From the NCBI GenBank assembly GCA_018304465.1, contig JAGVWC010000007.1:1-22285 (forward strand): a stretch of 22,285 bases of DNA, in the 5' to 3' direction. Each line of letters opens with the position of its first letter. Position 1 is the stretch's first letter. The notes below the pieces were generated by a model. That model was given only the letters and a program-made list of their open reading frames with translations. It did no database searches and had not been told where the DNA came from. Of this stretch, positions 2,250 to 22,284 are shown piece by piece. This DNA is from Candidatus Iainarchaeum sp. GTDB taxonomy: Archaea; Iainarchaeota; Iainarchaeia; Iainarchaeales; JAGVWC01. The position numbers and the translations under genes are program-made.

Positions 2250-2663
2250 TTAAACGCGTATTCCGGAAATTGCCGTTTTTGCCGGGTTTTTTTGGTATTG
2301 CCGCAAGCCTTCTTTTAACAGCACCAACGCCAAAGTCGCGCATTTGATGCGGGTCTGAATGATTCCGCCCAATTCGTCAAACATCTGGTGTGGAGTGATT
2401 TCCAGGACCTCGATAATGGTTTTTCCCTTGACCATTTCCGTCAAAAGCGAAGCCGCCGCGGTAGAAATCGCGCACCCGACGTTTTCAAACGACGCGTCCA
2501 CCACGGTGTTTCCCTCAAGTTTCAAAAAAATCGTGGCTTTGTCCCCGCAAATCGGGTTTCCACCCGACACTTCCAAAGACGGGACATTCAGTTTTCCCCG
2601 GTTCTGCGGATTCTTGTACAATTCCAGAATCACTTCCGAAAACAATTCGTTTGAATCCGTCAT
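2250..2663 (-). CDS. sufU: U-type Fe-S scaffold / sulfur-transfer protein (SufU/IscU family)
   Basis: ILELYKNPQNRG, NPICGD, GCAISTAAAS and RIKCATL supply three conserved Cys plus Asp. ATGA overlap with sufS. Confidence 0.92.
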   Translation of the reverse strand: MTDSNELFSEVILELYKNPQNRGKLNVPSLEVSGGNPICGDKATIFLKLEGNTVVDASFENVGCAISTAAASLLTEMVKGKTIIEVLEITPHQMFDELGGIIQTRIKCATLALVLLKEGLRQYQKNPAKTAISGIRV

Positions 2664-3895
2664 TTTTTCCCGACCTTGAAAATTCTCTGGGTTTTTTCGA
2701 TTCCTTCCACGAGCTTGTCCACTTCGTCAAACGAATTGTAAAAATAAAAACTCGCCCGGCACACCGCGTCAAAACCCAAATCGCGAAGCAATGGCTGCGC
2801 GCAATGATTACCCGAACGAATCGCAATTCCGTCCGAATCCAATACCGTGGCCACGTCATGCGGATGCACGCCATCCACCGTAAACGAAAAAATCGACACT
2901 TTTTTTTCCGGTTTTGGACCCAGAACTTTTACTCCGGGCAATTGCGAAAGCGCTTTATGCGCAGCGCGCCCCAAATTCGAATCGCGTTTCGAAATCTCGT
3001 CAAAACCGATTCCCTGCAAAAATTCCACGGCCGCGCCAAACCCCACCATGCCCGCGATATCCATGGTTCCCGCCTCAAAACGCCACGGAAGCGAATTATA
3101 CGTGGCGCGATCCCAAAAAACCTCAGAAATCATTTCGCCCCCGGTTAAAAACGGCGGCAAAGACGACAAAACATCCTGACGCCCCCACAGCAACCCCACC
3201 CCTGTGGGACCGCACATCTTGTGGCTTGACCACGTCAAAAAATCGCACCCGATTTTCCGAACGTCCACCGGAAAATGCGGAACGGACTGGCAGGCATCCA
3301 CCAGACACAAGCCCCCGTAATCATGTGCAAGACGCGACAATTGCCGCACGTCATTAATAGTACCCAACACATTGGACGCGTGCGACACCGCAACCAAACG
3401 CGTTTTTTTCGAAATCATTTTCTCGGCCGCATCCAAATCCAATTCCATCGAAGACGACAGCGGGATTACTTTTAGTTTCAAATCCAATTCTTCGGCAAGC
3501 ACGATCCACGGCACGAGATTCGCATGATGCTCCATTCCAGAAACCAGTATCTCGTCTCCTTTTTTGAAAAACCCTTTTTTCTTCAAACCAAACGAAACCA
3601 AATTAATCGCCTCGGTCGCGTTTCGCGTCAAGACGATTTCCTGCATCGAATACGCATTCACCAGATCCGCAGCCAATTCATGTCCTTCGTCGAACAGGTT
3701 CGACGCTTCCTCGCTTAACGTATGCTTGGCGCGGTGCACATTGGCATTGTGATTACAATAAAAATCAGCAATTGCGTCGATCACGACCCGGGGCTTTTGA
3801 CTCGTGGCCGCGCTGTCAAGATACACCAACGGCTTTTTGTTCACCTGCCGGCGCAGAATCGGAAACTCTTTTCGGATTTTTTCCCAGTTGACCAT
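2660..3895 (-). CDS. sufS: Cysteine desulfurase, class II (SufS)
   Basis: YLDSAATSQKP, EHHANLVPW, DACQSVPH, PLP-lysine motif SSHKMCGPTGVG, FEAGT, and catalytic-Cys motif VHPHDVATVLD...RSGNHCAQP. Confidence 0.97.
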   Translation of the reverse strand: MVNWEKIRKEFPILRRQVNKKPLVYLDSAATSQKPRVVIDAIADFYCNHNANVHRAKHTLSEEASNLFDEGHELAADLVNAYSMQEIVLTRNATEAINLVSFGLKKKGFFKKGDEILVSGMEHHANLVPWIVLAEELDLKLKVIPLSSSMELDLDAAEKMISKKTRLVAVSHASNVLGTINDVRQLSRLAHDYGGLCLVDACQSVPHFPVDVRKIGCDFLTWSSHKMCGPTGVGLLWGRQDVLSSLPPFLTGGEMISEVFWDRATYNSLPWRFEAGTMDIAGMVGFGAAVEFLQGIGFDEISKRDSNLGRAAHKALSQLPGVKVLGPKPEKKVSIFSFTVDGVHPHDVATVLDSDGIAIRSGNHCAQPLLRDLGFDAVCRASFYFYNSFDEVDKLVEGIEKTQRIFKVGKK

Positions 3896-3899
3896 GCGA

Positions 3900-5036
3900 T
3901 TACTCCAAACGAGCAGCGATTTTTTCTTCCAGCAACCCGAGCACCCGTTCTCGAAGCAGCGGAGACAATTCGTTCGCGACGCTTTCCAAAAAACCGGATA
4001 CGATCATTTTTTCGCATTCCTGACGCGGAATTCCTTTGGACTCCAAGTAAAAAATCGCGTCTTCGTCCACGTGCGCCACGGATGCGGAATGCGTCGCTTT
4101 CACGTCATCCGCCAAAATCTCAAGGCCCGGAATCATGTTCGCGGTCGCGGACTTTGAAAGCAGCATTCCGTGGCATTCCAGCAACGCGTCCGACTGCTGC
4201 GCATTGGGAAAAATCCGGATCATCCCGTCAAACGCCGCGTTAGACGCATCCAGAAAAACCCCTTTGAAAACGCAACGGCTAAAACAATTTCCGACACGAT
4301 GATTATTCGAAAACAACACGTCAAAACCCGCTTTGCCCGAACCAAAACACACGTCACGCTGGGAAACCTTTCCCCCGCTATTGGTCAAGTGGTTGGCCAC
4401 AGAACATTTTAATTCCCGGGCATTTAAAAAACCGTTCGAAGGCGAGAGCGACGCGTCTTTTCCGATAAACGACTGCAATGAAACAAACCCGTCGGCATTC
4501 ACGTCGAACAACCGGACAAACGACGCGTTCGCGTTGTCTTCGAGAACGATGGACTGAAAATAACCGCCTTCAAAATTGCCTTTCAAATGCTCGATCCAGG
4601 CGACGCCCGAAACGCTTTCTTTGACTACGATCAAAACCTTGTACGCGACATCCTTTTTTCCCGAAAAAGTCCACTCAAGCGGAGCGGAAACATCGGTTTT
4701 ATTGTCGATGACCAGAACAAAACCCGCGTTAAAAAACGCGTTCACGAACCATTCGAACTCCGCCTGCGGCGATTCTTTTTCAAGCAACGATTTTACGTCC
4801 AGAGACTTGTCGTTAAAAGCCTGTTCCCAGGACAACACCCGCACGCCTTTTTTTTCCAGTTCAACCGGCGCGCGCGCATCACTTCCTCCCGGAGAAAAAT
4901 CCACCCATTTCTTTTTTGGCGAAAAAAAATACGGTTTTTTCGCAGTGGAAAACGACTCGAACCCGGTTTTGTTCTTTTGCCGGTAACCGGAAAACCACTT
5001 GGGCTCGCCGGTCACGCTCAACGTACTAGACCCCAT
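3900..5036 (-). CDS. sufD: Fe-S cluster assembly protein SufD
   Basis: C-terminal FKGVFLD...FDGMIRIFPNAQQSDA...PGLEILADDVKATHSASV...IFYLESKGI. GGTGA RBS 4 nt before the ATG. Lies between sufB and sufS. Confidence 0.93.
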   Translation of the reverse strand: MGSSTLSVTGEPKWFSGYRQKNKTGFESFSTAKKPYFFSPKKKWVDFSPGGSDARAPVELEKKGVRVLSWEQAFNDKSLDVKSLLEKESPQAEFEWFVNAFFNAGFVLVIDNKTDVSAPLEWTFSGKKDVAYKVLIVVKESVSGVAWIEHLKGNFEGGYFQSIVLEDNANASFVRLFDVNADGFVSLQSFIGKDASLSPSNGFLNARELKCSVANHLTNSGGKVSQRDVCFGSGKAGFDVLFSNNHRVGNCFSRCVFKGVFLDASNAAFDGMIRIFPNAQQSDALLECHGMLLSKSATANMIPGLEILADDVKATHSASVAHVDEDAIFYLESKGIPRQECEKMIVSGFLESVANELSPLLRERVLGLLEEKIAARLE

Positions 5037-5048
5037 TTTTTCACCCAG

Positions 5049-6467
5049 TTACCCGATGGTTCCTTCCATTTCCATTTCAATCAGGCGGTTCAATTCCACG
5101 GCGTACTCCATGGGCAACGATTTGGTGAACGGCTGGATGAAACCCAATACGATCAACGTCAACGCTTCGGTTTCGGTCAATCCTCTGGAGGTCAAATAAA
5201 AAATCTGGTCTTCCCCGATTTTTCCGACTTTGGCTTCGTGCGCGATTGTTGCCGTCGGTTCGTTGATTTCAATCGTCGGATACGTATCGCTTCGCGAATA
5301 ATCATCCAGGAGCAACGCGTCGCACACCACGTTGCTTTTCACGTTTTTCATTCCTTTGGCCACGCGCACCAATCCCCGATACGACGCGCGGCCACCGTCT
5401 TTGGAAATGCTTTTCGAGGTAATGCGGCTCGTGGTGTTCGAGGCCAAATGCACGACTTTTGCGCCGGCGTCCTGATGCTGTCCTTTGGCGGCCAGCGCGA
5501 CGGAAAGAATCTCGGCTTTCGAGCCTTCGCCGAGCAAAAAAACCGCCGGATACTTCATCGTGACCTTCGAACCCAAGTTTCCGTCCACCCATTCCACGGT
5601 CGCGTTTTTGTGCGCCACCGCGCGCTTGGTCACGAGATTGTAAATATTGTTCGACCAGTTCTGAATCGTTGTGTACCGCACATGCGCGCTGTCTTTGGCC
5701 ACGACTTCAACGACCGCCGAATGCAACGCCTGCGACGAATACTTCGGAGCCGTGCAACCCTCGACATAATGAATTTGACTTTCCGGTTCCGCCACGATCA
5801 ACGTGCGCTCGAACTGACCCATGTTTTCCGCGTTAATCCGAAAATACGCCTGCAGGGGAATCTCGACTTTCACGCCTTTTGGAACAAAAACGAACGATCC
5901 GCCGCTCCACACCGCGCTGTTTAACGCCGCGAACTTGTTGTCGGAATACGGAATCGTTTTTCCGAAATGCGCTTTCACGATTTCGGGATACTCCAACAAA
6001 CCCTGGTCCATGGACAAAAACAAGACTCCGAGTTTTTCCAAATCTTTCCGGATGCTGTGATACACGATTTCGGAATCATACTGCGCGCCAACGCCGCCCA
6101 AAAACTTTTTTTCGGCATCCGGAAGCCCGAGCCGGTCAAACGTATTCTTGATGTACTCCGGAACGTCCTCCCATTTTTCGCGGTTGGCTTCGGACGCGCG
6201 CATGTAATACACGATGTCATTAAACTTGATGCCATTCAAATCCGCGCCCCATTGCGGCATGGGCTTTGCTTCAAAGGCTTTGAGCGCCTTGAGGCGATAC
6301 TCGAGCATCCATTGCGGTTCGTTCTTGATCGCGGAAATTTCCTTGACGGTTCTTTCGGAAAGCCCCTTGTTGAGAATGACTTCATAGCTTTCCGTACCCG
6401 TCTTGAAATCGTAACGCGAATAATCCAGGCTCGCAAGCTGGCGTTCCTTGGACAAGTCCTTGGCCAT
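5049..6467 (-). CDS. sufB: Fe-S cluster assembly protein SufB
   Basis: GVGAQYDSE, DNKFAALNSAVWSGGSF, PLQAYFRIN, GQFERTLI, HYVEGCTAP, TIQNWS, NLVTKRA, GSKVTMKYP, CDALL, HEAKVGKI, LPMEYAVELNRLI. Confidence 0.98.
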   Translation of the reverse strand: MAKDLSKERQLASLDYSRYDFKTGTESYEVILNKGLSERTVKEISAIKNEPQWMLEYRLKALKAFEAKPMPQWGADLNGIKFNDIVYYMRASEANREKWEDVPEYIKNTFDRLGLPDAEKKFLGGVGAQYDSEIVYHSIRKDLEKLGVLFLSMDQGLLEYPEIVKAHFGKTIPYSDNKFAALNSAVWSGGSFVFVPKGVKVEIPLQAYFRINAENMGQFERTLIVAEPESQIHYVEGCTAPKYSSQALHSAVVEVVAKDSAHVRYTTIQNWSNNIYNLVTKRAVAHKNATVEWVDGNLGSKVTMKYPAVFLLGEGSKAEILSVALAAKGQHQDAGAKVVHLASNTTSRITSKSISKDGGRASYRGLVRVAKGMKNVKSNVVCDALLLDDYSRSDTYPTIEINEPTATIAHEAKVGKIGEDQIFYLTSRGLTETEALTLIVLGFIQPFTKSLPMEYAVELNRLIEMEMEGTIG

Positions 6468-7234
6468 TATTTTTCAGCTCCACGGCCCATCGCGCTTTTT
6501 TGCAGCACGGTTTTGTAACCGTTTGCTTCCAGTTCGTCCGCCAAAGACATGTCGCCGGACGCGACGATCCGGCCTTCGCTTAACACGTGCACCACGTCGG
6601 GCTTGAGGTAATTCAGGATGCGTTTGTAGTGCGTGATCACGATTGCCGAAAAATCCGGTCCGCGCAGCCGGTTCACGGATTCCGCCACCAGTTTTAAGGA
6701 ATCGATGTCAAGACCCGAATCGGTTTCATCCAAAATCGCAAGCTTTGGCTCGAGCATCATCAACTGCAGGATTTCCGCGCGTTTTTTTTCCCCGCCGGAA
6801 AAACCAACATTAAGCTCGCGCTTGGTGAACTCGGGAGTCATGTGCAGGGCCTCGGCCTTGCTTTTAAGCAATTTTTGAAAATCAAGCACGGAAATTTTTT
6901 TGTTCGGAAAACGCGCCTTGTACGCGGAAAACAAAAACTTGGAAAACCCGAGGCCTTGAACCTCAAACGGATACTGAAAACTCAAAAACAAACCAAGACG
7001 GCTACGCTTGTCCGGCGAAAGTTCCAGCACATCTTTTCCTTCAAACGAAATCGATCCTTTCGTCACCACGAATTTGGGGTGCCCCATGATCACGTTGGAC
7101 AACGTGGATTTTCCGCTTCCATTCGGACCCATGATCGCGTGCACTTCGCCTTTCTTGACGGACAAATCGATTCCGTTGAGTATGTTTTTCCCGTCAATTT
7201 GGGCATGCAGATCTTTCACCGAAAGCAAATCCAT
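6467..7234 (-). CDS. sufC: Fe-S cluster assembly ATPase SufC
   Basis: Walker A GPNGSGKST, Q-loop FQYP, signature FSGGEKKR, Walker B ILDETDSGLDID, ITHYKRIL. GGAGG RBS 7 nt before the ATG. Confidence 0.98.
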   Translation of the reverse strand: MDLLSVKDLHAQIDGKNILNGIDLSVKKGEVHAIMGPNGSGKSTLSNVIMGHPKFVVTKGSISFEGKDVLELSPDKRSRLGLFLSFQYPFEVQGLGFSKFLFSAYKARFPNKKISVLDFQKLLKSKAEALHMTPEFTKRELNVGFSGGEKKRAEILQLMMLEPKLAILDETDSGLDIDSLKLVAESVNRLRGPDFSAIVITHYKRILNYLKPDVVHVLSEGRIVASGDMSLADELEANGYKTVLQKSAMGRGAEK

Positions 7235-7246
7235 TCGTTTTCCTCC

Positions 7247-7585
7247 TTACTGAATCTGCGTCAACTTGTTGCAATGATTTTGGCACGCCAACGCGATATG
7301 CGAATCCATATATTCGAAAATACTTGATTTTCCTTTTTCCATGGAAACGCCTTGTTTAATCACCGGGTTCAAATCGTAAATCCGCTGTTTTCCCTGGGTT
7401 CTCACGGTGACATAATTGCACAGGCGAAGCATCGAAAGCGAATGACTCAAACGCGATTGCTCGGTGGAAAGCGACTTGGCCAAATCGTTTACGGAACGCG
7501 GTTTTTCCGCCAATTCCTTTAGGATTTTCAATCGCAAATCATTGGACAAGGTTTCAAAACACAGATTATATGGCTTTTCCTTCAT
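7247..7585 (-). CDS. ArsR/SmtB-family transcriptional regulator with a Cys-containing C-terminal tail; first gene of the suf operon
   Basis: FETLSNDLRLKIL...RSVNDLAKSL...QSRLSHSLSMLR...V..RTQGKQRIY is the ArsR winged-HTH pattern. C-terminal HIALACQNHC. Start placed at ATG 7585, 26 nt below the TTTAAA box; the track start is 7597. Confidence 0.88.
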   Translation of the reverse strand: MKEKPYNLCFETLSNDLRLKILKELAEKPRSVNDLAKSLSTEQSRLSHSLSMLRLCNYVTVRTQGKQRIYDLNPVIKQGVSMEKGKSSIFEYMDSHIALACQNHCNKLTQIQ

Positions 7586-7602
7586 ATGAAATATCATTCA
7601 TA
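7585..7602. promoter_or_regulatory. Putative ArsR/SmtB operator TATGAA-N6-TTCATA
   Basis: Perfect 6-6-6 inverted repeat. Its core TGAA-N6-TTCA matches the SmtB/CzrA operator core. It lies between the TATA box and the arsR start codon. Confidence 0.7.
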
Positions 7603-12901: not shown

Positions 12902-13627
12902 TTAGGAACTAAAAAACCGAAAACCGATCCAAATCAATCCGACCAAAACCGGCTGATGAACCAAATACAACACCAACGAATGGCGCCCCAAAAACCCCAA
13001 TAATCGGACCGGGCGCCCAGAAACCCACCCAAACACCCGTGTTTTTTGGCCTTTTGGAAAAAAACGATCCGCGGCCGCAATCCCCAGCAAAAACACGCCA
13101 AACCAGGGAAACAACGGAAAATAATCAAACGTCTGAAACGAAAACGGAAACAACACGATCCAATCCGGAACCCACGTGCCGTTTTGCGAAAACACGATTC
13201 CCGCCGCCACCACTGCGATCCCGGCCCAAAACGAAAACCGAGGACGCGAAACGAACGGAATCGAAAGCATTGTCGCGACCCCCAGCAAATGCAACACCCC
13301 AAACCAAATCACGTAATCCGGAAAAAAAACCAAGGTGAACAAGGTAATCAAAAAACCGATGCCGAGCAAAAACAATCCCCGCGAAACAAAATCCGCGATC
13401 AACCCATAACCATCCAGATTCCGGCGAAACACCCGCACATACAGCGACAACCCCGCGACAAACACGAACAAAAACGCGGCCACGCGGCCCAACCAAAAAA
13501 ACACGCCCGAATACACGTCAAAACGCGGCCCGACGAAAAAATTGTAATCAAACAAAAAATGAAAAAGAATCATGGCCACGATGGCGATTCCGCGCAACGC
13601 ATCGATTTCAATCCAACGCGCGGACAC
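12902..13627 (-). CDS. DUF1624 / heparan-alpha-glucosaminide N-acetyltransferase-like polytopic membrane protein
   Basis: RWIEIDALRGIAIVAMILFHFLFD, FVFVAGLS, FGVLHLLG, DYFPLFPWFG and LGRHSLVLYLVHQP, with multiple TM segments. Confidence 0.9.
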   Translation of the reverse strand: MSARWIEIDALRGIAIVAMILFHFLFDYNFFVGPRFDVYSGVFFWLGRVAAFLFVFVAGLSLYVRVFRRNLDGYGLIADFVSRGLFLLGIGFLITLFTLVFFPDYVIWFGVLHLLGVATMLSIPFVSRPRFSFWAGIAVVAAGIVFSQNGTWVPDWIVLFPFSFQTFDYFPLFPWFGVFLLGIAAADRFFPKGQKTRVFGWVSGRPVRLLGFLGRHSLVLYLVHQPVLVGLIWIGFRFFSS

Positions 13628-13645
13628 AAAAAAAACCTTTCTTCG

Positions 13646-13972
13646 TCAACCAAACGCAGGCAGGAAAAAACGCCACCATAACAAAAGCATCGCCGCAAGC
13701 ATCAAAACCGCGACTTCAAGTTCAAGCGAAACCGTCAAATAATTCGAAAAAGGTTTTTCCGAAACCGATTCGGTTTTTTTCCACCTGGAAAAAAAACGCT
13801 TTTGGCTCGACAATAACAAACCCAAGCTCAAAAACATCAGCAACAGCATCGCACCGGCAATCATGACCAGAAAAACCGAGAAAAGAAATCCCACGACCGC
13901 AAGCAAAAGCCCGGCCAAGGAAAAAATCAATAACACCGGATTCAAAAAACCCGTGAGGCGGTTGGATACCAT
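13646..13972 (-). CDS. Small hypothetical membrane protein (about 3 TM segments)
   Basis: Hydrophobic segments. ATG 13972 lies about 26-30 nt below a TTTAAAAA box; the track start is 14011. Confidence 0.65.
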   Translation of the reverse strand: MVSNRLTGFLNPVLLIFSLAGLLLAVVGFLFSVFLVMIAGAMLLLMFLSLGLLLSSQKRFFSRWKKTESVSEKPFSNYLTVSLELEVAVLMLAAMLLLWWRFFLPAFG

Positions 13973-14046
13973 ATAGTGTTTCAAAGGACAAAAACAATTT
14001 TTAAAGACCACCGAACCGCAAACCCGAAAAAAGAAAGAAAACGGGT

Positions 14047-14280
14047 TTACTTCAAACCCAGGGCTTTCTTAATGGCTTCGCGATTAAAACCAACGATGAT
14101 TTTTCCGTTAATGTCAAGCACGGGCACGCCGGTTTGACCCGATTTCTGGATCATTTCCTCGGCTTTGTCATAATCATCGTCGACGAACACATCGTTAAAC
14201 GAAACCTTGCTTTGTTTGAGATAGTCTTTTGCCATGATGCAATACGGACACGTATGCGTCGAATACACGGTAACAGCCAT
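14047..14280 (-). CDS. Glutaredoxin-like protein (NrdH/YruB type)
   Basis: VTVYSTHTCPYC, SGQTGVPV, INGKIIVGFN. GGAGG RBS upstream. Confidence 0.95.
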   Translation of the reverse strand: MAVTVYSTHTCPYCIMAKDYLKQSKVSFNDVFVDDDYDKAEEMIQKSGQTGVPVLDINGKIIVGFNREAIKKALGLK

Positions 14281-14364
14281 AGTGAGAAAACCTCCTTTGG
14301 AAAAAAATTCTCCGATTGACTACAAAAAATGTGAAACCGCAGGTTTAAAAAAAACTGCCCTGAC

Positions 14365-14384
14365 AATTCAAAAAGATTTGAATT
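14365..14384. promoter_or_regulatory. Perfect 8-4-8 inverted repeat AATTCAAA-AAGA-TTTGAATT; candidate operator between the divergent glutaredoxin and regulator genes
   Basis: Read directly from the sequence. Lies between a minus-strand TATA-like box (about 14344-14352) and a plus-strand ATTAAAAA box (14401-14408). Confidence 0.6.
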
Positions 14385-14444
14385 AACCCCCACCAGCGCA
14401 ATTAAAAATCAGTTTCTACCCCAAACAATAGTTACGGAAAAAAC

Positions 14445-15158
14445 ATGGAACTCGCATTCATTCTCATCGCCCCGTTCAGCAAAGACGCCACAAACATTAT
14501 TCAAAATCAATCCCGCAATTCCATCGTCAAAACATACTTGCTCGCGCCAAAAAACGCGCTTTCGTTCACCCAAGCCGCGGAAGCCGCGTTCAAAAAAAAC
14601 AAAATTCCACTCGAAATCCTCGACGTGGACCAGCCCGACCAGATCGATTCAGTGCACGAACTCCTCGGACAACTCAAACAACGAGAAAGCCAACACCCCA
14701 TGATATTCGACTTAAGCGACGCCTCCGAACCATTGGGCCGGATTGTGTTGTCGTTCGCGCACCTGCACGGACTGCAGGTAACGGAACAACGCAACCACAA
14801 AACCATGGAGTATCCGGTTCCACAACAAGCGTATTTCGAAACACTTTCCGACAAAAAAGTCCAGGTACTCGCGATTTTGGCCAAAAAAGACTGCTGTGAT
14901 TCGCTTGACGACTTGTCGAAAAAACTCAACCTTTCGCCAAGCCTGATCAGCTATCATGTGAACGGAACCGACAAAAACCCCGGGCTTTGGGAACTCGGAC
15001 TCGTGGAACACGTTCGAAAAAACGGAAAAATCGTGCTCAAATTAACAGACCTGGGCCGCTTGCTCGTCAAAGACCCCGATTTGATGGAAAAAGCCAGGTC
15101 ATTAACCCGAAAAGAAAACGAAGACCCGTCGCTGACCAAACCATTCTGGAAAAAATAA
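14445..15158 (+). CDS. Transcriptional regulator with an N-terminal CARF-like Rossmann domain and a C-terminal winged HTH (Csa3/DUF6293-like architecture)
   Basis: N-terminal alternating beta/alpha pattern with IFDLS...LSFAHLHG at the CARF strand-4/helix position. C-terminal LSDKKVQVL...SLDDLSKKLNLSPSLISYHV...GLWELGLVE...LKLTDLGRLL is a winged HTH. A vicinal CC precedes the HTH. Confidence 0.75.
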   Translation: MELAFILIAPFSKDATNIIQNQSRNSIVKTYLLAPKNALSFTQAAEAAFKKNKIPLEILDVDQPDQIDSVHELLGQLKQRESQHPMIFDLSDASEPLGRIVLSFAHLHGLQVTEQRNHKTMEYPVPQQAYFETLSDKKVQVLAILAKKDCCDSLDDLSKKLNLSPSLISYHVNGTDKNPGLWELGLVEHVRKNGKIVLKLTDLGRLLVKDPDLMEKARSLTRKENEDPSLTKPFWKK

Positions 15159-15177
15159 AAAACAAAAAAAAACACGC

Positions 15178-15840
15178 TTATTGTTTAAGCGCGTCTTCGA
15201 CGGCACGTTCGATTTCGGACTGATTAAACCCGTCGATTCTTTTTCCGTTCACGAAAAAACTCGGAGTCGAATACACGCCGAACCGAACCGCGTCATCCAT
15301 GTCTTTTTGGATTTTCGGAACAAACTTTCGAGACGCAATACACGCATCAAATTTTTCCATATCCAAACCAATCGACTCGGCCTGGTTCCGAATCGCGTCT
15401 CTTCCGATCGGAGACCACGTCGACTGATTCAAAAACAAAGCGTCGTGCATTTCCCAAAACTTTCCCTGTTCATTCGCGCATTCGGACGCTTCGGCCGCAG
15501 CCACGGCGAACGGGTGGGTTCCAACGAGCGGAAAATGCCGATACACAAATTTGATTTCCGTATTATACCGCTCTACTAAATCCTGGATCGGACGAAACGC
15601 GGTGCCACACGCGGGACATTGGAAATCCGAAAACTCGACCACCACGACTTTCGCATCCGGATTGGCTTTCACGTGCCCCTGGAACGAAAGTTCTTCGTTC
15701 GAAAAAGTGGTGTCAGACGGAGGCGCGTTTGGGGCCAGCACGATCGCGCCGATGATTCCCAACACCACCAAAACAACGCCGATCCCAAGATACAAACCCC
15801 AGTTGCTTTCCTTTTTCCGGGCCTCTTGCGACTGCTTCAA
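15178..15840 (-). CDS. dsbA: Membrane-anchored DsbA-family thiol-disulfide oxidoreductase; true start possibly ATA at 15855
   Basis: N-terminal TM, VVEFSDFQCPACG, YRHFPL, AAEASECANEQGKFWEMHDALF, and cis-Pro loop GVYSTPSFFVNG. Confidence 0.92.
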   Translation of the reverse strand: MKQSQEARKKESNWGLYLGIGVVLVVLGIIGAIVLAPNAPPSDTTFSNEELSFQGHVKANPDAKVVVVEFSDFQCPACGTAFRPIQDLVERYNTEIKFVYRHFPLVGTHPFAVAAAEASECANEQGKFWEMHDALFLNQSTWSPIGRDAIRNQAESIGLDMEKFDACIASRKFVPKIQKDMDDAVRFGVYSTPSFFVNGKRIDGFNQSEIERAVEDALKQ

Positions 15841-15851
15841 GGTTTTCTTGC

Positions 15852-17015
15852 TTATGACGATCCCTCCGCATCAATTCCCGCGACCATTTGGTTGCTGTTC
15901 AAATCGAAAAAATTGAAATCCGATCCGATGGCCGAAAGATTCCGGAACACGAATCTTCCATCCGAAGCAACCGTTCCAAAATCACTCCACGCTGCCAAAA
16001 GACCCGGATAAGCGTTCGTATCCCCGCTTAACAGAATCGTGGGAACGAGGAAAACGTTGTAATCGGCCAATAGTTTTTTTCCTTCCGCAGACGCGACATC
16101 CACATAGGTTCGGGTCGCGACTTCAAGCCCGAAAACCTGGGACAAAAGCCCCGTATGAAGATTCACGTCGTAACACGAAGCACACGCGTTCATGCCCAAA
16201 AAAATCGCGTGAACGATCCCGACTTTCTTGCCGGAATTCAAATCCAAATACACCGGCGGAAACTGCCGAAACACGAAATTTCCATCAGACTCTTTGGACC
16301 CATAATTCGAAATCCCTGCGAAAAACTCACTGTACAACTCGACGTCCCGCGAAAAAATAATCGACGGAAGACGTTGCAGTTTGTAATCGGCCGCCACCGC
16401 TTGCCCTTCAAGCGACGAAGACGCGAGTGTACGGTACTGTCCGAGCTTGAAACCCGATTGGGCCATTTGTTCTTCGGAAGGCACTTGGCGGCACTCCGAA
16501 CAATTCAAATCGAAAACAACCGTGACATCCACGATTCCGCGTTCGCGGTTTTCCTGCAAATCGAAAAAAACCGGCGGAACGTTTCCGACCACAAACACGT
16601 AATCCCCCATGTCCAGACGACGCACAGGAGCAATCGCTTCAGACAACTGATCCGTGGCCGCCTGATTGGCAAACAACAGGATCGAAGGAACGCGATTCAA
16701 ATCGAAATCATCCACGACTCCGAGGCCCTCGGAAGAATCAAACTCGATGGACCGCTCTTCGGTAACGGAAAAACCCTGGGCTTCCAACTCGCTTTTGAAA
16801 CCCGCAAGCGGAGTGCAATCCACGCAATCCGAATTCACGACATACAACAACCGAAGCTTTGGGGTTTCTGCCGCGGGGTTGCCGGTGTTTTGATCGTTGT
16901 TTGCAGCCGGAGGCAGCAAATTGAAAGAACCCACGTTAAACAACAAGGCCACGTTCACCAACAGCACCAAAGCGACCGCCGCGATCAGCACGATTTCGAG
17001 TTTTCCCAGTTTCAA
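15852..17015 (-). CDS. Membrane-anchored protein with three tandem thioredoxin-like CxxC repeats
   Basis: N-terminal TM, then three roughly 105-115-aa repeats, each with CxxC (CVDC, CSEC, CASC), an SxEG motif and a cis-Pro-like VPS/LPS/VPT loop, ending in DL. TTG start 8 nt after GGAGG. Confidence 0.85.
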   Translation of the reverse strand: MKLGKLEIVLIAAVALVLLVNVALLFNVGSFNLLPPAANNDQNTGNPAAETPKLRLLYVVNSDCVDCTPLAGFKSELEAQGFSVTEERSIEFDSSEGLGVVDDFDLNRVPSILLFANQAATDQLSEAIAPVRRLDMGDYVFVVGNVPPVFFDLQENRERGIVDVTVVFDLNCSECRQVPSEEQMAQSGFKLGQYRTLASSSLEGQAVAADYKLQRLPSIIFSRDVELYSEFFAGISNYGSKESDGNFVFRQFPPVYLDLNSGKKVGIVHAIFLGMNACASCYDVNLHTGLLSQVFGLEVATRTYVDVASAEGKKLLADYNVFLVPTILLSGDTNAYPGLLAAWSDFGTVASDGRFVFRNLSAIGSDFNFFDLNSNQMVAGIDAEGSS

Positions 17016-17030
17016 AGTTTTCTCCTCCCA

Positions 17031-17948
17031 TCACGATTTTTTGGCCAATTCAGATTCAATGACCGATTTTAATTGGTCATACGACTGCGGACCCACCAAA
17101 ACAGTGTCCCCAATAAAAAAAGTCGGAGTGCCATAAATACCCATGCGTTTGCCTTCGTCGGAAGTGGTGTTCACAACATCCGAATATTTTCCGGATCCAA
17201 GACACTGCGCAAAACTGTTTTGATCCAATCCGACTTCGCGAGCGATGCTGTTAAACACAGGCATTCCTTCGTCGCGAAACAACAACTGGTTATCGAAAAG
17301 ACGGCCCTTGTATTCCGCGAACTTTCCTTGTTCCGCCGCACACGCGACTGACAACGCGGCTTCCGAACTATACTGATGACTTGGCAAGGGAAAATACTTC
17401 CACAACAAATTCACTTGACCGTCGTAATCCGAAAGAATTTTTTGCACCGCAGGCTCCGATTGCTTGGTAAACGGACACGAAAAACACCCGAACTCGACAA
17501 TCGTCAAAGACGCATTCCGGCCACCCTGCCACTGACCCGAAACCAAATCCGGTTTTCCCTTGATGTCGGACGGAGAAAGCTTGGACGGATCCTGACCCGA
17601 AAAAGTGTTATAAATGCAAAACTCGCTTGAATTCGGACCGTTACAGTTCCCGAAAGCCCACCAATTATAGACGCCGATCACGCTTAACACGAGACTTGCG
17701 ACCGTCAACACCGTCAAAACCCAGGACAAACCTTCGAAATACTTGAAAACAAAACCACCCAACGCCTTGTTTTGCTTTAACAAACCCGTGGAAATCCGGG
17801 TTTTCATTTTCGTGTCAAAACCCGTGGTGCACTTTCGAAACGTGACGCGCCGAAAAACACAATCAAAAGCCTCGGTCGCCAATTGGCGATGCGACGCGCT
17901 AAAAATCCCCATGATTCCGAACACGATGAGCGCAATAAAACAAATCAA
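17031..17948 (-). CDS. DsbA-family protein with an N-terminal Cys-rich membrane domain and an atypical CFSCPFT active site
   Basis: C-terminal DsbA fold: TIVEFGCFSCPFT, WKYFPL, CAAEQGKF, GIYGTPTFFIG. The N-terminal ~110 aa has two TM segments and five Cys. Start placed at TTG 17948, 7 nt after GGTGA; the track start is 17966. Confidence 0.85.
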   Translation of the reverse strand: MICFIALIVFGIMGIFSASHRQLATEAFDCVFRRVTFRKCTTGFDTKMKTRISTGLLKQNKALGGFVFKYFEGLSWVLTVLTVASLVLSVIGVYNWWAFGNCNGPNSSEFCIYNTFSGQDPSKLSPSDIKGKPDLVSGQWQGGRNASLTIVEFGCFSCPFTKQSEPAVQKILSDYDGQVNLLWKYFPLPSHQYSSEAALSVACAAEQGKFAEYKGRLFDNQLLFRDEGMPVFNSIAREVGLDQNSFAQCLGSGKYSDVVNTTSDEGKRMGIYGTPTFFIGDTVLVGPQSYDQLKSVIESELAKKS

Positions 17949-18008
17949 AACATCGTCACCAGACAAAAAGAAACGATTTCAATAGACTTTAACCTTGAAA
18001 CGGTTTTT

Positions 18009-18046
18009 AAAAAAAGCGGTTGGGTTCGGAAAACCCCGAACCACCG
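18009..18046 (-). terminator. Hairpin plus oligo-T putative terminator; the T-tract overlaps a TATA-like box for the downstream thioredoxin operon
   Basis: On the plus strand CGGT-TG-GGTTCGG-(AAAACC)-CCGAACC-ACCG lies immediately after the stop of 18047-19027. On the minus strand it is followed by T7 and then AAAAA. Confidence 0.55.
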
Positions 18047-19027
18047 TTAATCGACGCCAACAGGCAAATCCTGCGAAACAACCGGGGCTGACACCGGCGG
18101 CTTTGAAGCGACTTTCGCAGGACGCAAAAACATCAAATAACCAAACACCGCCAAAAAAACCACGGCCAAACCAAAAAACACCATGGCCCACTGGTTAATT
18201 CCCGTGGTCCACGCGGACACGTACACGGTCACCGCCGACACCAATGACGCAGACGAAACCACGGACTTAGCCGCCGAAAACTGACTCAAAAAAGACGCGC
18301 CCAAGGACTGCGATTCGACTGACACCACGGCACCAAGGCCCCCTAACACCAAACCGGCGACCAAAAACGATACTCCCAAACAAAGAAACACGAATCGGTT
18401 ACGCAAAATCAAAACCAGCAAAACCGAAAAAACAATCGCGATCAAACCGAACAACAAGGAAAGAACCGGCAACTGATTCAATACGTCGCGACCCTGACTA
18501 AGCGACGCCATCATCGTTTCCCGCTGACTTGGCGGGATTTGTTGCAGGACATCGATCGAATCAGGAACCAGGGAAAAATCCACGTACTCGGCCACCGAAG
18601 AACCCAATGGCCCCGAAAAACGCTGGTCCAAAAAAAATTCCGCCCGCTGTTTTGGGCTGGCCAAGGAAACCGAAAGCGACAACGTCGACGCGTTACCGTT
18701 CAAAAAACCAAAAACGTTATCCACCAAGCCGTTTACCTGGGAATCAAACCACGCTTGATCGACGCTTGCCGACACCAATTCGCTCGAAAAATTCGGTCCC
18801 ACGGTTTGACGCAGCGGAAACGGAATCTGGGAATCCACGTACGATTCCAACTGGGAAGACACCGCGGGAAACAGATTCAGCGCGGCAATGGCTTTTTTCG
18901 CGTTATTGGGATCCGTTACGACGTGATCCGAAACGGAAACGATTCCAAAACCCACCACGGCCACGACGAGCAAAAAACACAAGCAGGCGCAAAGACCGAC
19001 TCTCAAAAAGACCAAAGGTTTTGTCAT
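18047..19027 (-). CDS. Hypothetical membrane protein (N-terminal TM, large soluble loop, three C-terminal TMs)
   Basis: 326-aa ORF with clear hydrophobic segments. TTTATATA box about 29 nt upstream. Confidence 0.8.
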   Translation of the reverse strand: MTKPLVFLRVGLCACLCFLLVVAVVGFGIVSVSDHVVTDPNNAKKAIAALNLFPAVSSQLESYVDSQIPFPLRQTVGPNFSSELVSASVDQAWFDSQVNGLVDNVFGFLNGNASTLSLSVSLASPKQRAEFFLDQRFSGPLGSSVAEYVDFSLVPDSIDVLQQIPPSQRETMMASLSQGRDVLNQLPVLSLLFGLIAIVFSVLLVLILRNRFVFLCLGVSFLVAGLVLGGLGAVVSVESQSLGASFLSQFSAAKSVVSSASLVSAVTVYVSAWTTGINQWAMVFFGLAVVFLAVFGYLMFLRPAKVASKPPVSAPVVSQDLPVGVD

Positions 19028-19104: not shown

Positions 19105-19854
19105 TTAGTCGCTTTCGATGCGCGGCGCCAAAAAATACGTCAAATCCGCCTGACCGATCTTGTAATTGATCTTTACCGGCGCGTTCGAGCGGATGAACAA
19201 ATTCACTTCGGTATCGCTTGACGCGGCTTTTAGCATGTCCGACAAATAATCCAGCGGAAACATGGCCTGGCAATCATTACGCGATTTCAAACTCAACAAT
19301 CCTTTTTCTTCTTTCGAAGTTTCGGACTTCAATTCGCCTTTGGACGAACTTGCGCGCAACGAAAAACGCTCGCCTTTGACTCCGACCATGACATGCGTGG
19401 AAATCAACAACGCGTCTTTTAATCCGTCCTGCAAAACGCCCGCCGCCATTTTCAATTCGGCTTCAAAATCAAGCTTTGGCGTCGGCAAATCCGCGGAAGA
19501 AACGTCAATCAATGGAATCGAAAAACTGCGTTTGGACGCGCCTTTAAAACCGGCTAGCAAACGCGAATTTTCCTCGTCAAGTTCCAACGACAACTCGTCG
19601 CTTGACTTGGAACGCGCCATGACTTGCGCCAAATAATCCAAATCCAAACCAATCTTGGCCACGCCATCGGCTTTAAAGGATTTGAACGCGGTTTTTGGCA
19701 AGGAAAAATCAACCATTGAAATCTGGGACGGGTCCGTTGCCTTTAACGACAACCCGTTTTCATCTACCACAAATTCGGCTTCGTCAATCAAAACCGCAAT
19801 CGCGTCAATACACCGCTTAAACTCCGCTGCATTATCCAAAACCAGTGAAATCAC
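19105..19854 (-). CDS. pcn: DNA polymerase sliding clamp (PCNA), canonical copy
   Basis: 249 aa with LIDEAEF, LKATDPSQISMVDF, IGLDL, FSIPLID, FPLDYL and C-terminal YFLAPRIE. Confidence 0.96.
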   Translation of the reverse strand: MISLVLDNAAEFKRCIDAIAVLIDEAEFVVDENGLSLKATDPSQISMVDFSLPKTAFKSFKADGVAKIGLDLDYLAQVMARSKSSDELSLELDEENSRLLAGFKGASKRSFSIPLIDVSSADLPTPKLDFEAELKMAAGVLQDGLKDALLISTHVMVGVKGERFSLRASSSKGELKSETSKEEKGLLSLKSRNDCQAMFPLDYLSDMLKAASSDTEVNLFIRSNAPVKINYKIGQADLTYFLAPRIESD

Positions 19855-19918: not shown

Positions 19919-20698
19919 TTAGGAACGCCCCCCAACCGCAGTCCAATACGCGCAATACTCGCCTTGAACCGAAACGTTTCTTGGACAGCCCGCCAACAAT
20001 TCAATGACATCATCCCAAATCAACAACTTGACATACCCCAACACCGGAATCTTAAACCACTGTTTTCCAATCACGGCTTTCGAATCGATTCCGTACGGCG
20101 TAATACACCCAAATTGCGGCCGACCCAACACGATCCGACCGCAATCCTGGTCAAACGTAGGGTTCGCGTCGCCTTTGGTCAAAATAAACGTTCCGTTCTG
20201 AGTCACAATTTTCAAAACCGCCCGATGAATCACCGGAATCCTCGAAAACTCGGAAAAATACACGATCGTATCCCCGTTCAAATCAAACCGGATTTCTTTT
20301 CCCGAAATTTCCACCGCATAAAACGCCAAATTTCCTTCGGAATCGATCACGCGCCTTACTTTTCCGAATTCTTCAAACCCCCGGTTCTTCAATGCGCCAT
20401 TAAACGCGACTTCCTGGGCCTTGACCGACGAAGCGGAAGCGCCTTGCAACACGACAATATCGCCGCGATGCAACACGGGCTCCATCGAACCCGACACCAC
20501 GATCACGATCGGCATGGCAGTGCCCAGCAAAAAACCCAAGGCCACATACAACACGTACGCGGACAAAAACGCGGTCACGACTTCGACAAAAAAACGAAAC
20601 ATGGGAACTTCATCCATTCCCAAGCGCTTGACCAACAAATCCGAATACGTGAACGGATCCAGCCACTTTAAGCGTTCCTTAAATTCTACCCAGTCCAT
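19919..20698 (-). CDS. sec11: Signal peptidase I, archaeal/ER (Sec11, S26B) type
   Basis: TM followed by VVSGSMEPVLHRGDIV (catalytic Ser), VIHRAV (His), TKGDAN, and VIGK...IPVLGY. Start placed at ATG 20698 because the track start (20821) overlaps the upstream gene. Confidence 0.93.
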   Translation of the reverse strand: MDWVEFKERLKWLDPFTYSDLLVKRLGMDEVPMFRFFVEVVTAFLSAYVLYVALGFLLGTAMPIVIVVSGSMEPVLHRGDIVVLQGASASSVKAQEVAFNGALKNRGFEEFGKVRRVIDSEGNLAFYAVEISGKEIRFDLNGDTIVYFSEFSRIPVIHRAVLKIVTQNGTFILTKGDANPTFDQDCGRIVLGRPQFGCITPYGIDSKAVIGKQWFKIPVLGYVKLLIWDDVIELLAGCPRNVSVQGEYCAYWTAVGGRS

Positions 20699-20754
20699 AA
20701 CCCGCAATCCTATACCAGTAAACACCAAAAGAATAAAAAAGCACGAACAAAGGA

Positions 20755-22284
20755 CTACTTTTTGAAATACTCGTAACCAATCGCGCCCAACGCCAATACG
20801 ATCACTGCGACCGACACCCACAGAATCGGATCGGATTCATCCATGGGATTCTGCGAAGAAGCGACTTTGATGCACACGCCTGCCTTGCATACACTGCCGA
20901 CATCACACGGTTCTCCATCCGGAAACTTGATCGCGTAACAAGAGCCTTTCACGCAACGACTGGCCACACAAGCGCTTGACGACGCACAATCAGAAGTCAA
21001 AACACACTGGTTCGACCGGACCTCCATGTCCGTCGAACTCGTTGCCGCCACCGCAAACGGATATACAAACAATAACACGTCTTCGCTGGTCAAAGCGACA
21101 GGAAAAACATATTCGATCACGACGGTTTGTTGCGAAAGCAGCCCTGGCACCGTAAACGAAATCGCAGTTGAACCTGCAATCCGGTCAAAAGGAATATCCG
21201 AACGCGCCAGATCCGCGAATTTTTCCGGAAGAACCTCGTACACCACTACGTTTTTCAACGCCGAACCCGAAACATTGGTCAACTCTAAAATTACCCGTGA
21301 CTGCTCCACCACTTTGCCGCCCGTCCGAATCGATTCCACCACCACGCTTCGCTTGACGGAAACAAAACCCAACGCGGACTGAACCCCTTGGATTGAAAGA
21401 CCAAACAAACCCGGCAAATCGGACAATTCAGAAACGTTCCCGGGGGACACTTTGGTTTCGCCGATCAACCGTCTTGAAACGACTTCGGATCCGCCGCAAT
21501 CCGCGGGACACGAAATCACGGATTCAGACGCTTCGCATACCCGGTTCCCGCAACCCAAGGCACAATCCACCGGACAAGACAAGTTATTTTCGGTTCCCGT
21601 GCAGGCACGATCGCCACACCACGCTGGACAGTCGTTTGGACACGTAATCGCGGATTCGGTTTTTTCACAAAAGTTGTTCCCGCAGTGATCCAGCGGAACA
21701 CCGCTTGCGGACTCAAACGTAACGGGAAAACTATTCGCCGCGGTGTTGACGTCCGCGTTGTTTTGGGCTTTGATGTACACGCGTTTTGTGTGGGGTAATG
21801 AAACTGCGGAAGAAATCGAAAAAGAATAGGTCGTGTTTACTCCATTGTCGGCAAACGAATCCCCGTTGTCGGTTGAAATCCAGTATTTTTTGATCCCGCT
21901 GGTTGCGGACGCCGTGTAACTGAAACTTGCGGTTAAACCGGTGACGGTTAAACGCGTGATCGTTAAGAACAAGCTTGGCAGCGATTTGTCCACGAGCACG
22001 TAAATGCGGTTCGTGGTTTCGCGGTTGCTTCGGATATCGGTTGAATTAAAATCGATCGCATAATTTCCGTCAGATGTAATCAAGATATTTTGATCAAAGG
22101 TTTGCCAACCACCCATCGAAACCACGTCACTTGAATCCGAATCCAAGCGAAACTGCGTTAACAAACAACCGGACGCATCGGAACACGTCAACACCACATT
22201 CGCATCCACATTCTGCCACGCATTATTATAATCCGAAGACGTAACAGGCGGAGAAGAATCATTTGCAACCGCAAAGTTATTGTC
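20755..22284 (-). CDS. C-terminal part of a large Cys-rich, C-terminally membrane-anchored surface protein; 5' end lies outside the window
   Basis: The frame stays open from 22284 (DNNFAVANDSSPPVTSSDYNNAWQNV...) to TAG at 20755. It has Ser/Thr-rich beta-sandwich-like segments, three CGxxxC-x8-CPxDC repeats, a DUF11/Ig-like domain (LELTNVSG..LKNVVVYEVLP), an 8-Cys domain, and a C-terminal TM followed by KK. Confidence 0.88.
   Translation of the reverse strand, partial: DNNFAVANDSSPPVTSSDYNNAWQNVDANVVLTCSDASGCLLTQFRLDSDSSDVVSMGGWQTFDQNILITSDGNYAIDFNSTDIRSNRETTNRIYVLVDKSLPSLFLTITRLTVTGLTASFSYTASATSGIKKYWISTDNGDSFADNGVNTTYSFSISSAVSLPHTKRVYIKAQNNADVNTAANSFPVTFESASGVPLDHCGNNFCEKTESAITCPNDCPAWCGDRACTGTENNLSCPVDCALGCGNRVCEASESVISCPADCGGSEVVSRRLIGETKVSPGNVSELSDLPGLFGLSIQGVQSALGFVSVKRSVVVESIRTGGKVVEQSRVILELTNVSGSALKNVVVYEVLPEKFADLARSDIPFDRIAGSTAISFTVPGLLSQQTVVIEYVFPVALTSEDVLLFVYPFAVAATSSTDMEVRSNQCVLTSDCASSSACVASRCVKGSCYAIKFPDGEPCDVGSVCKAGVCIKVASSQNPMDESDPILWVSVAVIVLALGAIGYEYFKK
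21496..21684 (-). repeat. Three tandem Cys-rich repeats with a 22-aa period (CGNNFCEKTESAITCPNDC / CGDRACTGTENNLSCPVDC / CGNRVCEASESVISCPADC)
   Basis: Read from the translation. The period is 66 nt with four invariant Cys per unit. Confidence 0.92.

Follow-up and report, generated by a model that had tools for sequence, protein, structure and literature searches.

The stretch of DNA considered here, referred to as the window, is the 22,285-nucleotide contig JAGVWC010000007.1 (contig C10) of assembly GCA_018304465.1 from Candidatus Iainarchaeum sp., a 1.25-Mb archaeal genome in 15 contigs that is estimated to be 91.9% complete. It contains a cluster of genes for thioredoxin-fold proteins, one of which joins a DsbA-type domain to an N-terminal membrane domain with five cysteines (hereafter the N-domain). 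The identity of the membrane driver of disulfide formation in organisms that bear DsbA without DsbB or VKOR has been a long-standing question since the first lists of such gaps were compiled, and the fusion of DsbA to an undescribed two-helix, five-cysteine domain in a tiny symbiotic archaeon may represent a new route to protein disulfides. In what follows G000 denotes the genome under study and C2, C7, C10 and C15 its contigs, and other G, L and P numbers denote sampled genomes, loci and protein cluster representatives, respectively.

Organisation of the thiol cluster

Three genes on the minus strand form an operon with spacers of 15 and 11 nt, and encode in order the DsbA fusion, a protein with three thioredoxin-like repeats (triple-Trx) and a plain DsbA (Table 1). 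The operon and a plus-strand gene for an orphan regulator are convergent, with 19 nt separating their stops, and the regulator is divergent from a glutaredoxin gene across a spacer of 164 nt. These genes had been described in an initial annotation of the window as a candidate disulfide module, and all were found in the window's list of open reading frames (ORFs); the absence of DsbB, VKOR and CcdA from the window, and the presence nearby of a signal peptidase and a cysteine-rich surface protein, were likewise borne out.

The frame of the fused gene is open from 17966 (17031–17966, 311 residues), and its start was set at the TTG codon at 17948 (MICFIAL..., 305 residues) because homologues begin MIC. 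Residue numbers are counted from this TTG, and those of the 311-residue ORF are higher by six. Its DsbA domain, at ORF residues 144–304, matches the profiles Thioredoxin_4 (PF13462; E 6.9e-24, 85.3 bits, cut-off 23.2) and DSBA (PF01323; E 1.5e-17, 64.5 bits, cut-off 25.6). In alignments of homologues C161 and C164 of the active site are invariant and T280-P281-T282 near-invariant, and the AlphaFold2 (AF2) model has predicted local distance difference test (pLDDT) values of 92–98 across this domain.

The triple-Trx protein has exactly six cysteines, arranged as CVDC, CSEC and CASC, with a [VL]P[ST]I motif after each of them. Its repeats align with one another with pairwise local-alignment z values of 9.1 to 23.2 against 200 shuffles, and the match to Pfam Thioredoxin is weak and below cut-off (E 5e-3). 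The ESM Atlas groups it with DPANN clusters of approximately 370 residues named 'thioredoxin domain-containing' (scores 0.96 and 0.93), and in the Atlas clusters that resemble it 41–59% of members carry Thioredoxin_3 or Thioredoxin. The plain DsbA matches Thioredoxin_4 (E 1.7e-28, 100.3 bits) and DSBA (E 1.9e-19, 70.7 bits), both over cut-off, and has 7784 homologues at E≤1e-10 among 8000 scored; C75, P76, C78, T192 and P193 are invariant in 40 sequences. Each of the three operon proteins has one N-terminal hydrophobic anchor and only the fusion has a second helix; from these anchors and from charge counts under the positive-inside rule, all their thioredoxin-fold domains are predicted to be extracytoplasmic.

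The glutaredoxin-like protein matches PF00462 (E 9.9e-18, 64.5 bits, cut-off 22.9) and scores 85.3 bits against the YruB family TIGR02196, just under the cut-off of 88.55. The regulator had been labelled a CC-bearing protein with CARF and winged helix–turn–helix (HTH) domains. The cysteine pair is indeed present (KKDCCDS) and the winged helix is weakly suggested by sub-threshold matches of the C-terminal part to HTH_5 (E 1.4e-3) and to the HTH part of Csa3 (E 7.5e-4). The CARF label has to be dropped, as only positions 137–202 of the Csa3-like model TIGR01884, its HTH part, are matched (18.9 bits, cut-off 60.2), and the N-terminal 130 residues match nothing in Pfam/NCBIfam profile, homologue or PDB searches. 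No homologue besides the protein itself was returned by a word-index search of 5.8 billion proteins, and no relative in the PDB at E≤0.35.

Table 1. Positions of the genes and domains of the thiol cluster and of annotated neighbouring genes in the window
Feature	Position	Strand	Details
CPYC glutaredoxin-like protein	14047–14280	−	77 residues, no hydrophobic segment, predicted cytoplasmic
Orphan regulator	14445–15158	+	237 residues, weak C-terminal winged-helix match
Plain membrane-anchored DsbA	15178–15840	−	220 residues, CPAC active site, anchor residues 12–42
Triple-Trx protein, membrane-anchored	15852–17015	−	387 residues, three thioredoxin-like repeats
DsbA fusion, linker and DsbA-type thioredoxin domain	17031–17585	−	CFSC, T-P-T cis-proline motif; stop codon 17031–17033
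DsbA fusion, N-terminal membrane domain	17586–17948	−	residues 1–121 from TTG start; two helices, five cysteines
Archaeal signal peptidase I	19919–20821	−	TIGR02228 E 8.8e-20
Cysteine-rich surface protein, C-terminally anchored, 5' end open	20755–22284	−	22 cysteines in 510 residues, repeated CP.DC...CG...C motifs
suf operon, complete, ArsR/SmtB regulator first	2250–7597	−	same strand as thiol cluster, 9.4 kb downstream
ArsR	7247–7597	−	suf operon
SufC	6467–7234	−	NCBIfam sufC 1e-102
SufB	5049–6467	−	NCBIfam sufB 3.3e-209
SufD	3900–5036	−	NCBIfam sufD 4.3e-47
SufS	2660–3895	−	NCBIfam sufS 2e-164
SufU	2250–2663	−	NCBIfam SufU 8.2e-29

A family of five-cysteine membrane domains

The cysteines of the N-domain are C3, C30, C40, C102 and C111 (C9, C36, C46, C108 and C117 of the 311-residue ORF). 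With ORF residues 1–140 as the query, 354 proteins among 465 candidates were found at E≤1e-3, with identities of 45–86%; they are annotated as Micrarchaeota, Diapherotrites, Woesearchaeota and Nanoarchaeota, together with one Patescibacteria, and nearly all have DsbA domains. A profile (A4) was then built from the N-domains of the window and of 74 other loci, leaving out L053 with its in-frame stop. The frame concerned (L053 8001–8399) has this one stop, which may reflect a pseudogene, a sequencing error or recoding. Searched against 1.84 billion proteins, the profile found 353 cluster representatives at E≤1e-3, in every one of which the domain is N-terminal, and in a collection of species-representative genomes at least 410 stretches, among 600 matched by pattern, encode a relative by tblastn.

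Conservation of the five cysteines is close to complete. Among the best 150 of the 353 representatives they are kept, in order along the domain, in 146/147, 150/150, 150/150, 149/149 and 145/145 sequences, and all five are also invariant in alignments of 25, 84 and 75 sequences. The membrane domain is moreover better conserved than the enzyme attached to it, with a mean pairwise identity of 56.7% against 34.6% for the DsbA domain and a higher value in 99.7% of 3486 pairs. No family in Pfam or NCBIfam matched the N-domain, and when 75 N-domain sequences were searched against Pfam at E≤1 the top family matched just six, with a best E-value of 0.027. No description of the N-domain, or of a pairing of archaeal DsbA with a desulfurase, was found in the literature as judged from titles and the openings of abstracts. 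The N-domain belongs to an undescribed, DPANN-wide family with two predicted membrane helices and five near-invariant cysteines.

Predicted topology and fold

The two helices are predicted at ORF residues 3–21 and 77–105. In the AF2 models (pLDDT 88.6 for the full protein and 76.4 for the domain alone) helix 1 and a long helix 2 are connected by a loop of 54 residues that holds three short helices. In 75 species this loop has 12.6 lysine plus arginine residues against 3.9 aspartate plus glutamate, and the 22 residues past helix 2 have 0.3 lysine plus arginine. Because the loop is so strongly basic, the positive-inside rule places C30 and C40 inside, and C3, C102, C111 and the DsbA domain outside. 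The prediction is therefore of a cytoplasmic pair, C30/C40, within the motif DCVFRRxTxRKC, and of three cysteines at the outer face, two of which, C102 and C111, lie within GNCNGPxSxxFC.

No known fold stood out when structures were compared. Foldseek returned nothing from the PDB at E≤0.001 for the model of the N-domain alone (pLDDT 76.4), and among the 48,161 chains compared by VIA-align there were only helical hairpins to match it, with Z no higher than 6.4, a result that can be used neither to claim a new fold nor to claim a difference from VKOR or DsbB. A complex prediction for the N-domain (A4) with residues 45–220 of the free DsbA scored 0.00 in a run without controls, and is evidence neither way.

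Gene neighbourhoods and architectures

The initial annotation had named synteny of the five gene families of the cluster as a test of its proposal. Across DPANN archaea the five are not conserved together. In 80 loci from other species, taken within 8 kb of the fused gene, a triple-Trx gene is present in 13, a glutaredoxin gene in three and a relative of the regulator, found by tblastn, in one (L033, 33% identity); a second DsbA was counted automatically in two, to which L068 can be added. These counts rule out five-gene synteny as a DPANN-wide unit. A module of the five-gene type recurs only in close relatives. In G133, from the same family, the fusion, triple-Trx, DsbA, glutaredoxin and HGSNAT genes are on one strand in a cluster that is otherwise collinear and lacks the regulator; G144 has the fusion followed by triple-Trx; G002 has DsbA, the fusion and glutaredoxin; and G048 has a stand-alone domain, triple-Trx, two DsbA genes and glutaredoxin. 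In G133, G002 and G048, which belong to lineages of the same order, a glutaredoxin homologue comes last in the cluster and is encoded on the same strand, in keeping with its suggested place as the cytoplasmic end of the pathway.

The conserved unit is the five-cysteine membrane domain rather than the five-gene cluster, and it is found in several architectures. Among the best 150 of the 353 representatives 93 are fused to a DsbA-like domain, and in P0187, P0230, P0235 and P0244 the N-domain is fused to a PF00085 thioredoxin. Within the window's phylum it was found in 80 of 201 sampled genomes, approximately one third of them as fusions of about 310–350 residues and the others as proteins or fragments of about 145–225 residues. 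All five cysteines are retained in each of the 20 stand-alone loci examined, 12 of which have an adjacent or fused thioredoxin-fold gene. In eight (L088, L089, L090, L091, L096, L100, L101 and L102) the neighbour is an anchored GILT/DSBA-like protein of about 350 residues with CPYG, and so a single cysteine, at the active-site position; in L105 two DsbA-like genes lie beside the domain, in L094 and L095 triple-Trx and DsbA genes do so, and in L104 a small CPHC thioredoxin is fused to it. Triple-Trx homologues are also next to the N-domain gene in L109 and L110. Two further observations concern the stand-alone loci. A DUF1405 membrane protein follows the GILT/DSBA-like gene in five of them (L089, L091, L100, L101 and L102), and many stand-alone domains (P0125, P0162, P0240 and others; L092–L099 and L105–L107) have short extracellular tails with 6–9 further cysteines, for example C.C....C...CEGNC.C.

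The idea that the N-terminal domain of the fusion is a missing relay stands in part: it is far more than an anchor, being a conserved five-cysteine family tied to thioredoxin folds by fusion and gene order, and it may act as such a relay.

A solitary SufS-type cysteine desulfurase

The dominant and widespread neighbour of the fused gene is a solitary SufS-type cysteine desulfurase. In 49 of the 80 loci (47 of the 71 with at least 1.2 kb of downstream sequence) a SufS-family gene shares the strand of the fused gene and starts −3 to +146 nt past its end, and it is present somewhere in the locus in 64 of 80; SufB, SufC or SufU is nearby in one. A SufS-family gene also abuts stand-alone domains in L098, L099, L103, L106 and, in a second phylum, L108. 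Several SufS-family proteins pass the SufS cut-off of TIGR01979 (475.1 bits), namely those of L099 (489.1) and L002 (508.0), the paralogue on C7 of G000 (506.7) and the SufS of the window's suf operon (547.3); for L003 (426.5) and L108 (395.7) it is the best-matching family and the score is under the cut-off. At least two SufS-family copies are present in 18 of the 26 genomes that carry the fusion, in 9 of the 54 where the domain takes another form and in 6 of the 121 that lack it. Among the 21 genomes of family f13, the domain and SufS are each confined to the same five (G076, G098, G121, G125 and G168).

In a quick tree with support from the Shimodaira–Hasegawa-like approximate likelihood-ratio test (SH-aLRT), the SufS of the window's own suf operon groups with another suf-operon SufS (SH-aLRT 92) and not with the type that is paired with the N-domain. 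The paralogue at C7:146865–148085 falls in a clade (SH-aLRT 98) with the paired type of relatives from the same order, and adjoins a PHP gene, as does the pair in L099.

Such an arrangement might mean that the paired SufS has a dedicated acceptor in the cytoplasmic CX9C loop, with the module handling a persulfide or binding an iron–sulfur cluster (for example in a dimer, through four cysteines), and that sulfur or electrons are delivered at the cell surface instead of DsbA being re-oxidised. The solitary desulfurase directly downstream without SufBCDU, its recurrence beside stand-alone forms, the coincidence of domain and SufS in f13 and the extra SufS copy that accompanies the fusion would all fit, as would the basic residues around both cytoplasmic cysteines and the cysteine-rich tails of many stand-alone forms. 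We nevertheless regard this explanation as rather unlikely: no known sulfur-carrier or iron–sulfur motif or family matches the N-domain, the dominant architecture is a fusion to DsbA, which is a thiol-disulfide enzyme, and one genome has the domain without a SufS match while in the genome under study the pair is split.

Distribution relative to VKOR and DsbB

In the window's phylum VKOR scores over its cut-off in 13 of 201 genomes, and the domain is found in none of these 13 and in 80 of the other 188; in the second phylum, that of L003, the domain is present in 51 of 201 genomes, VKOR in 84 and both in 12, so that the domain accompanies VKOR in 12 of 84 genomes and occurs in 39 of the 117 others (odds ratio 0.33, Fisher p 0.003), these statistics ignoring kinship, with counts that are not phylogenetically independent and a signal in the first phylum that comes from about three lineages. 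DsbB was found in none of the 201 genomes of the window's phylum. Strict mutual exclusion of the N-domain and VKOR is ruled out by the genomes that carry both. One of these, G343, has at L108 (C6, 2321–7430, minus strand) a run of genes on one strand encoding a SufS-like protein, a stand-alone five-cysteine domain with a cysteine-rich tail, a 183-residue membrane protein with a CC motif and no Pfam match, VKOR, two small membrane proteins and a Pyr_redox_2 flavoprotein.

This distribution bears on a purely structural explanation, by which the N-domain would be a dimerising membrane anchor with its outer cysteines in a structural disulfide and its inner pair binding zinc, the re-oxidation of DsbA would fall to small-molecule oxidants, the host or some other protein, and the SufS gene order would be inherited synteny. 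It is helped by the fact that the N-domain showed neither a catalytic motif nor a cofactor site nor a known fold, and by genomes of family f6 with DsbA and neither a known partner nor the N-domain. An anchor, however, would be expected neither to exceed its enzyme in conservation nor to keep five cysteines across 150 representatives, nor should it turn up repeatedly as a gene of its own next to differing classes of thioredoxin fold or be depleted in genomes bearing VKOR. We consider an anchoring role to be quite improbable.

Known recycling partners in this genome

A six-frame search of the whole 91.9%-complete genome gave no match at E≤1 to VKOR, DsbB, Erv1/Alr or MauE (PF07291). The initial view that no canonical partner is recognisable in the window can be extended to the genome for these four, with the qualification that one protein on C2 matches DsbD_TM/DsbD_2 (E 6e-45), the only DsbD-family match in the genome. 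This protein (L001 979–2502, minus strand) is a 507-residue fusion of heavy-metal-associated (HMA) and DsbD_2 domains with a Gly/Cys-rich tail, and its gene adjoins that of an ArsR; it looks metal-related, and its reading as a classic CcdA was set aside. A TrxR-like gene on C7 (E 7.1e-90) is under its equivalog cut-off, and a third anchored DsbA-like protein is encoded on C15.

Invariant cytoplasmic cysteines are typical of reductive conduits, unlike DsbB or VKOR, and the N-domain shares this trait. It could accordingly be asked whether a cytoplasmic glutaredoxin or thioredoxin, with the TrxR-like enzyme on C7, reduces C30/C40 in the manner of DsbD or CcdA and so keeps the outer DsbA-like domain and triple-Trx reduced as isomerases or reductases. 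The CPYC glutaredoxin at the end of the cluster in the window, G133, G002 and G048, the presence of a TrxR-like gene, and the 12 genomes with both the domain and VKOR, as expected where oxidising and reducing pathways coexist, are in favour of this. On the other side, CcdA and DsbD use mid-membrane cysteines, which the N-domain does not have; a reductive branch should go with an oxidase, whereas the association with VKOR is negative in both sampled phyla; and glutaredoxin is linked in only three of the 80 distant loci, the widespread partner being a desulfurase and no reductase. On balance a reductive role seems doubtful to us, and of low probability.

A proposed recycling module

Several lines of evidence argue that the N-domain takes part in thiol chemistry and is not there for anchoring, since it has invariant cysteines on both faces, is conserved above its own enzyme domain, is fused or adjacent to at least three classes of thioredoxin fold, is depleted in genomes with VKOR, and occurs in a genome with no match to a known partner. 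The reading that we favour, tentatively and at somewhat less than even weight, is that the N-domain recycles the attached DsbA in the manner of DsbB or VKOR and is linked to a cytoplasmic thiol or persulfide. The three outward-facing, anchored thioredoxin-fold proteins of the operon (15178–17948) would then form and shuffle disulfides in secreted cysteine-rich proteins, and the N-domain would fill the role of recycling partner that is held elsewhere by DsbB, VKOR or MauE. At the outer face the CxxC of the tethered DsbA domain would have C3, C102 and C111 as its exchange partners, and these may also serve the free DsbA and the triple-Trx protein; on the cytoplasmic side C30/C40 would connect the module to a thiol or persulfide protein. 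In most DPANN archaea this protein could be the dedicated, solitary SufS-type desulfurase, and in the lineage studied here it is perhaps the YruB-like glutaredoxin. The transfer of redox equivalents by the N-domain, the oxidising direction of flow and the crossing of the membrane are all steps that we infer from these patterns.

A more specific form of this proposal can be imagined. To our knowledge DPANN archaea have no respiratory quinone pool of their own. Electrons from DsbA might travel by way of the five-cysteine module to a persulfide that the dedicated SufS generates from free cysteine, with the reduction of S0 to H2S as the terminal acceptor step and glutaredoxin taking the cytoplasmic role in some lineages, including this one. 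We regard such a quinone-free disulfide machine as speculative and improbable in this exact form.

A number of observations weigh against the N-domain as a recycling partner. CxxC and CXC motifs are both absent from it, its helices number only two and no cysteine lies in mid-membrane, so that no route across the bilayer is evident. The chief weakness of every relay model is the lack of a visible cysteine or cofactor site inside the membrane. The N-domain has no sequence likeness to DsbB, VKOR, MauE or DsbD, and many stand-alone domains with cysteine-rich tails have no thioredoxin-fold neighbour. The desulfurase link is imperfect, as in the genome under study the paired-type SufS on C7 is unlinked to the fused gene, and G048 has its operon of domain, triple-Trx, DsbA and glutaredoxin with no SufS match at E≤1e-60. 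The complementarity with VKOR is incomplete besides its lack of correction for kinship: VKOR and the domain occur together in 12 of the 201 second-phylum genomes and in two of four hand-picked ones, with the two genes 1.2 kb apart in G343, and in family f6 Thioredoxin_4 is present in 19 of 20 genomes with neither the N-domain nor VKOR. Finally, the DsbD_2 protein on C2 is a possible reductant conduit.

Other genes in the window

DPANN archaea rely on surface proteins for attachment to their hosts, and the cysteine-rich surface protein listed in Table 1 is a candidate substrate of the thiol cluster. The surface protein has a 171-residue paralogue that shares its motifs and its C-terminal anchor and is encoded at C7:151192–151707 (minus strand), at a distance of 3 kb from the paired-type SufS. 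The fused gene is immediately preceded, on its own strand, by a gene for a 326-residue membrane protein (18047–19027) that matched no family and has a relative in none of the 80 loci. AT skew is very high over this gene and over another minus-strand membrane-protein gene at 12902–14011, reaching 0.41 (18001–19000) and 0.51 (13001–14000), respectively. The window also has two minus-strand genes for the sliding clamp PCNA, at 1470–2213 and 19105–19854 (NF002219 E 1.5e-41; PCNA_N/PCNA_C E 1e-14 and 1e-9).

Comparison with known systems

If the N-domain recycles DsbA it would join DsbB, VKOR and MauE as another, unrelated class of partner for generating disulfides. Should the link to the desulfurase prove functional, oxidative protein folding would be connected with the sulfur chemistry of cysteine. 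The family is widespread, sharply defined and small enough to be tested in Escherichia coli.

One parallel in layout is offered by the bacterial and archaeal homologues of VKOR (PF07884) that are fused to, or paired with, thioredoxin-like or DsbA proteins; VKOR is a four-helix bundle with a CxxC in its last core helix and a pair of loop cysteines. As in VKOR, the membrane domain is N-terminal to an outward-facing thioredoxin fold or encoded by a separate gene beside such proteins, cysteines are present in the polypeptide at the outer face, and the distribution of the N-domain partly complements that of VKOR. The N-domain differs in having no PF07884 match, two helices, no CxxC, two invariant cytoplasmic cysteines and no sign of a quinone site; no VKOR entries were among the fold-search results, which alone weighs neither way. 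DsbB has four helices, a CxxC and a second outer cysteine pair. Likeness to the DsbB–DsbA system (PF02600) is confined to the proposed role, the re-oxidation of DsbA through outer-face cysteines, since the N-domain has no homology to DsbB, a different number of helices, no CxxC and no evident quinone link.

On the reductive side, DsbD, CcdA and DsbD_2 (PF02683, PF13386) resemble the N-domain in having cytoplasmic-side cysteines and, possibly, a link to a cytoplasmic glutaredoxin or thioredoxin. The N-domain matches none of these families, and has two helices as against six or more and no intramembrane cysteine pair.

In a recent preprint MauE, with a CXC active site and predicted binding of ubiquinone, is proposed as a membrane route other than DsbB by which gaps in disulfide pathways are closed, and 20.1% of the bacterial species surveyed there are still without DsbB, VKOR or MauE (bioRxiv 10.64898/2026.03.05.709764). 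The main text of that preprint makes no mention of archaea (bioRxiv 10.64898/2026.03.05.709764). As put forward there, MauE is like the N-domain in being a non-DsbB membrane protein proposed to fill such a gap; the N-domain differs in having no CXC, and MauE is unmatched in this genome.

The link to SufS invites comparison with the group II cysteine desulfurases and their acceptors (SufS–SufE, SufS–SufU and CsdA–CsdE). SufE, SufU and CsdE are dedicated sulfur acceptors of these enzymes, and here too a SufS-family gene adjoins that of a small cysteine-bearing partner, away from SufBCD. The N-domain matches none of SufE, SufU, CsdE and TusA, and it differs as a partner in being integral to the membrane and joined to an exported DsbA.

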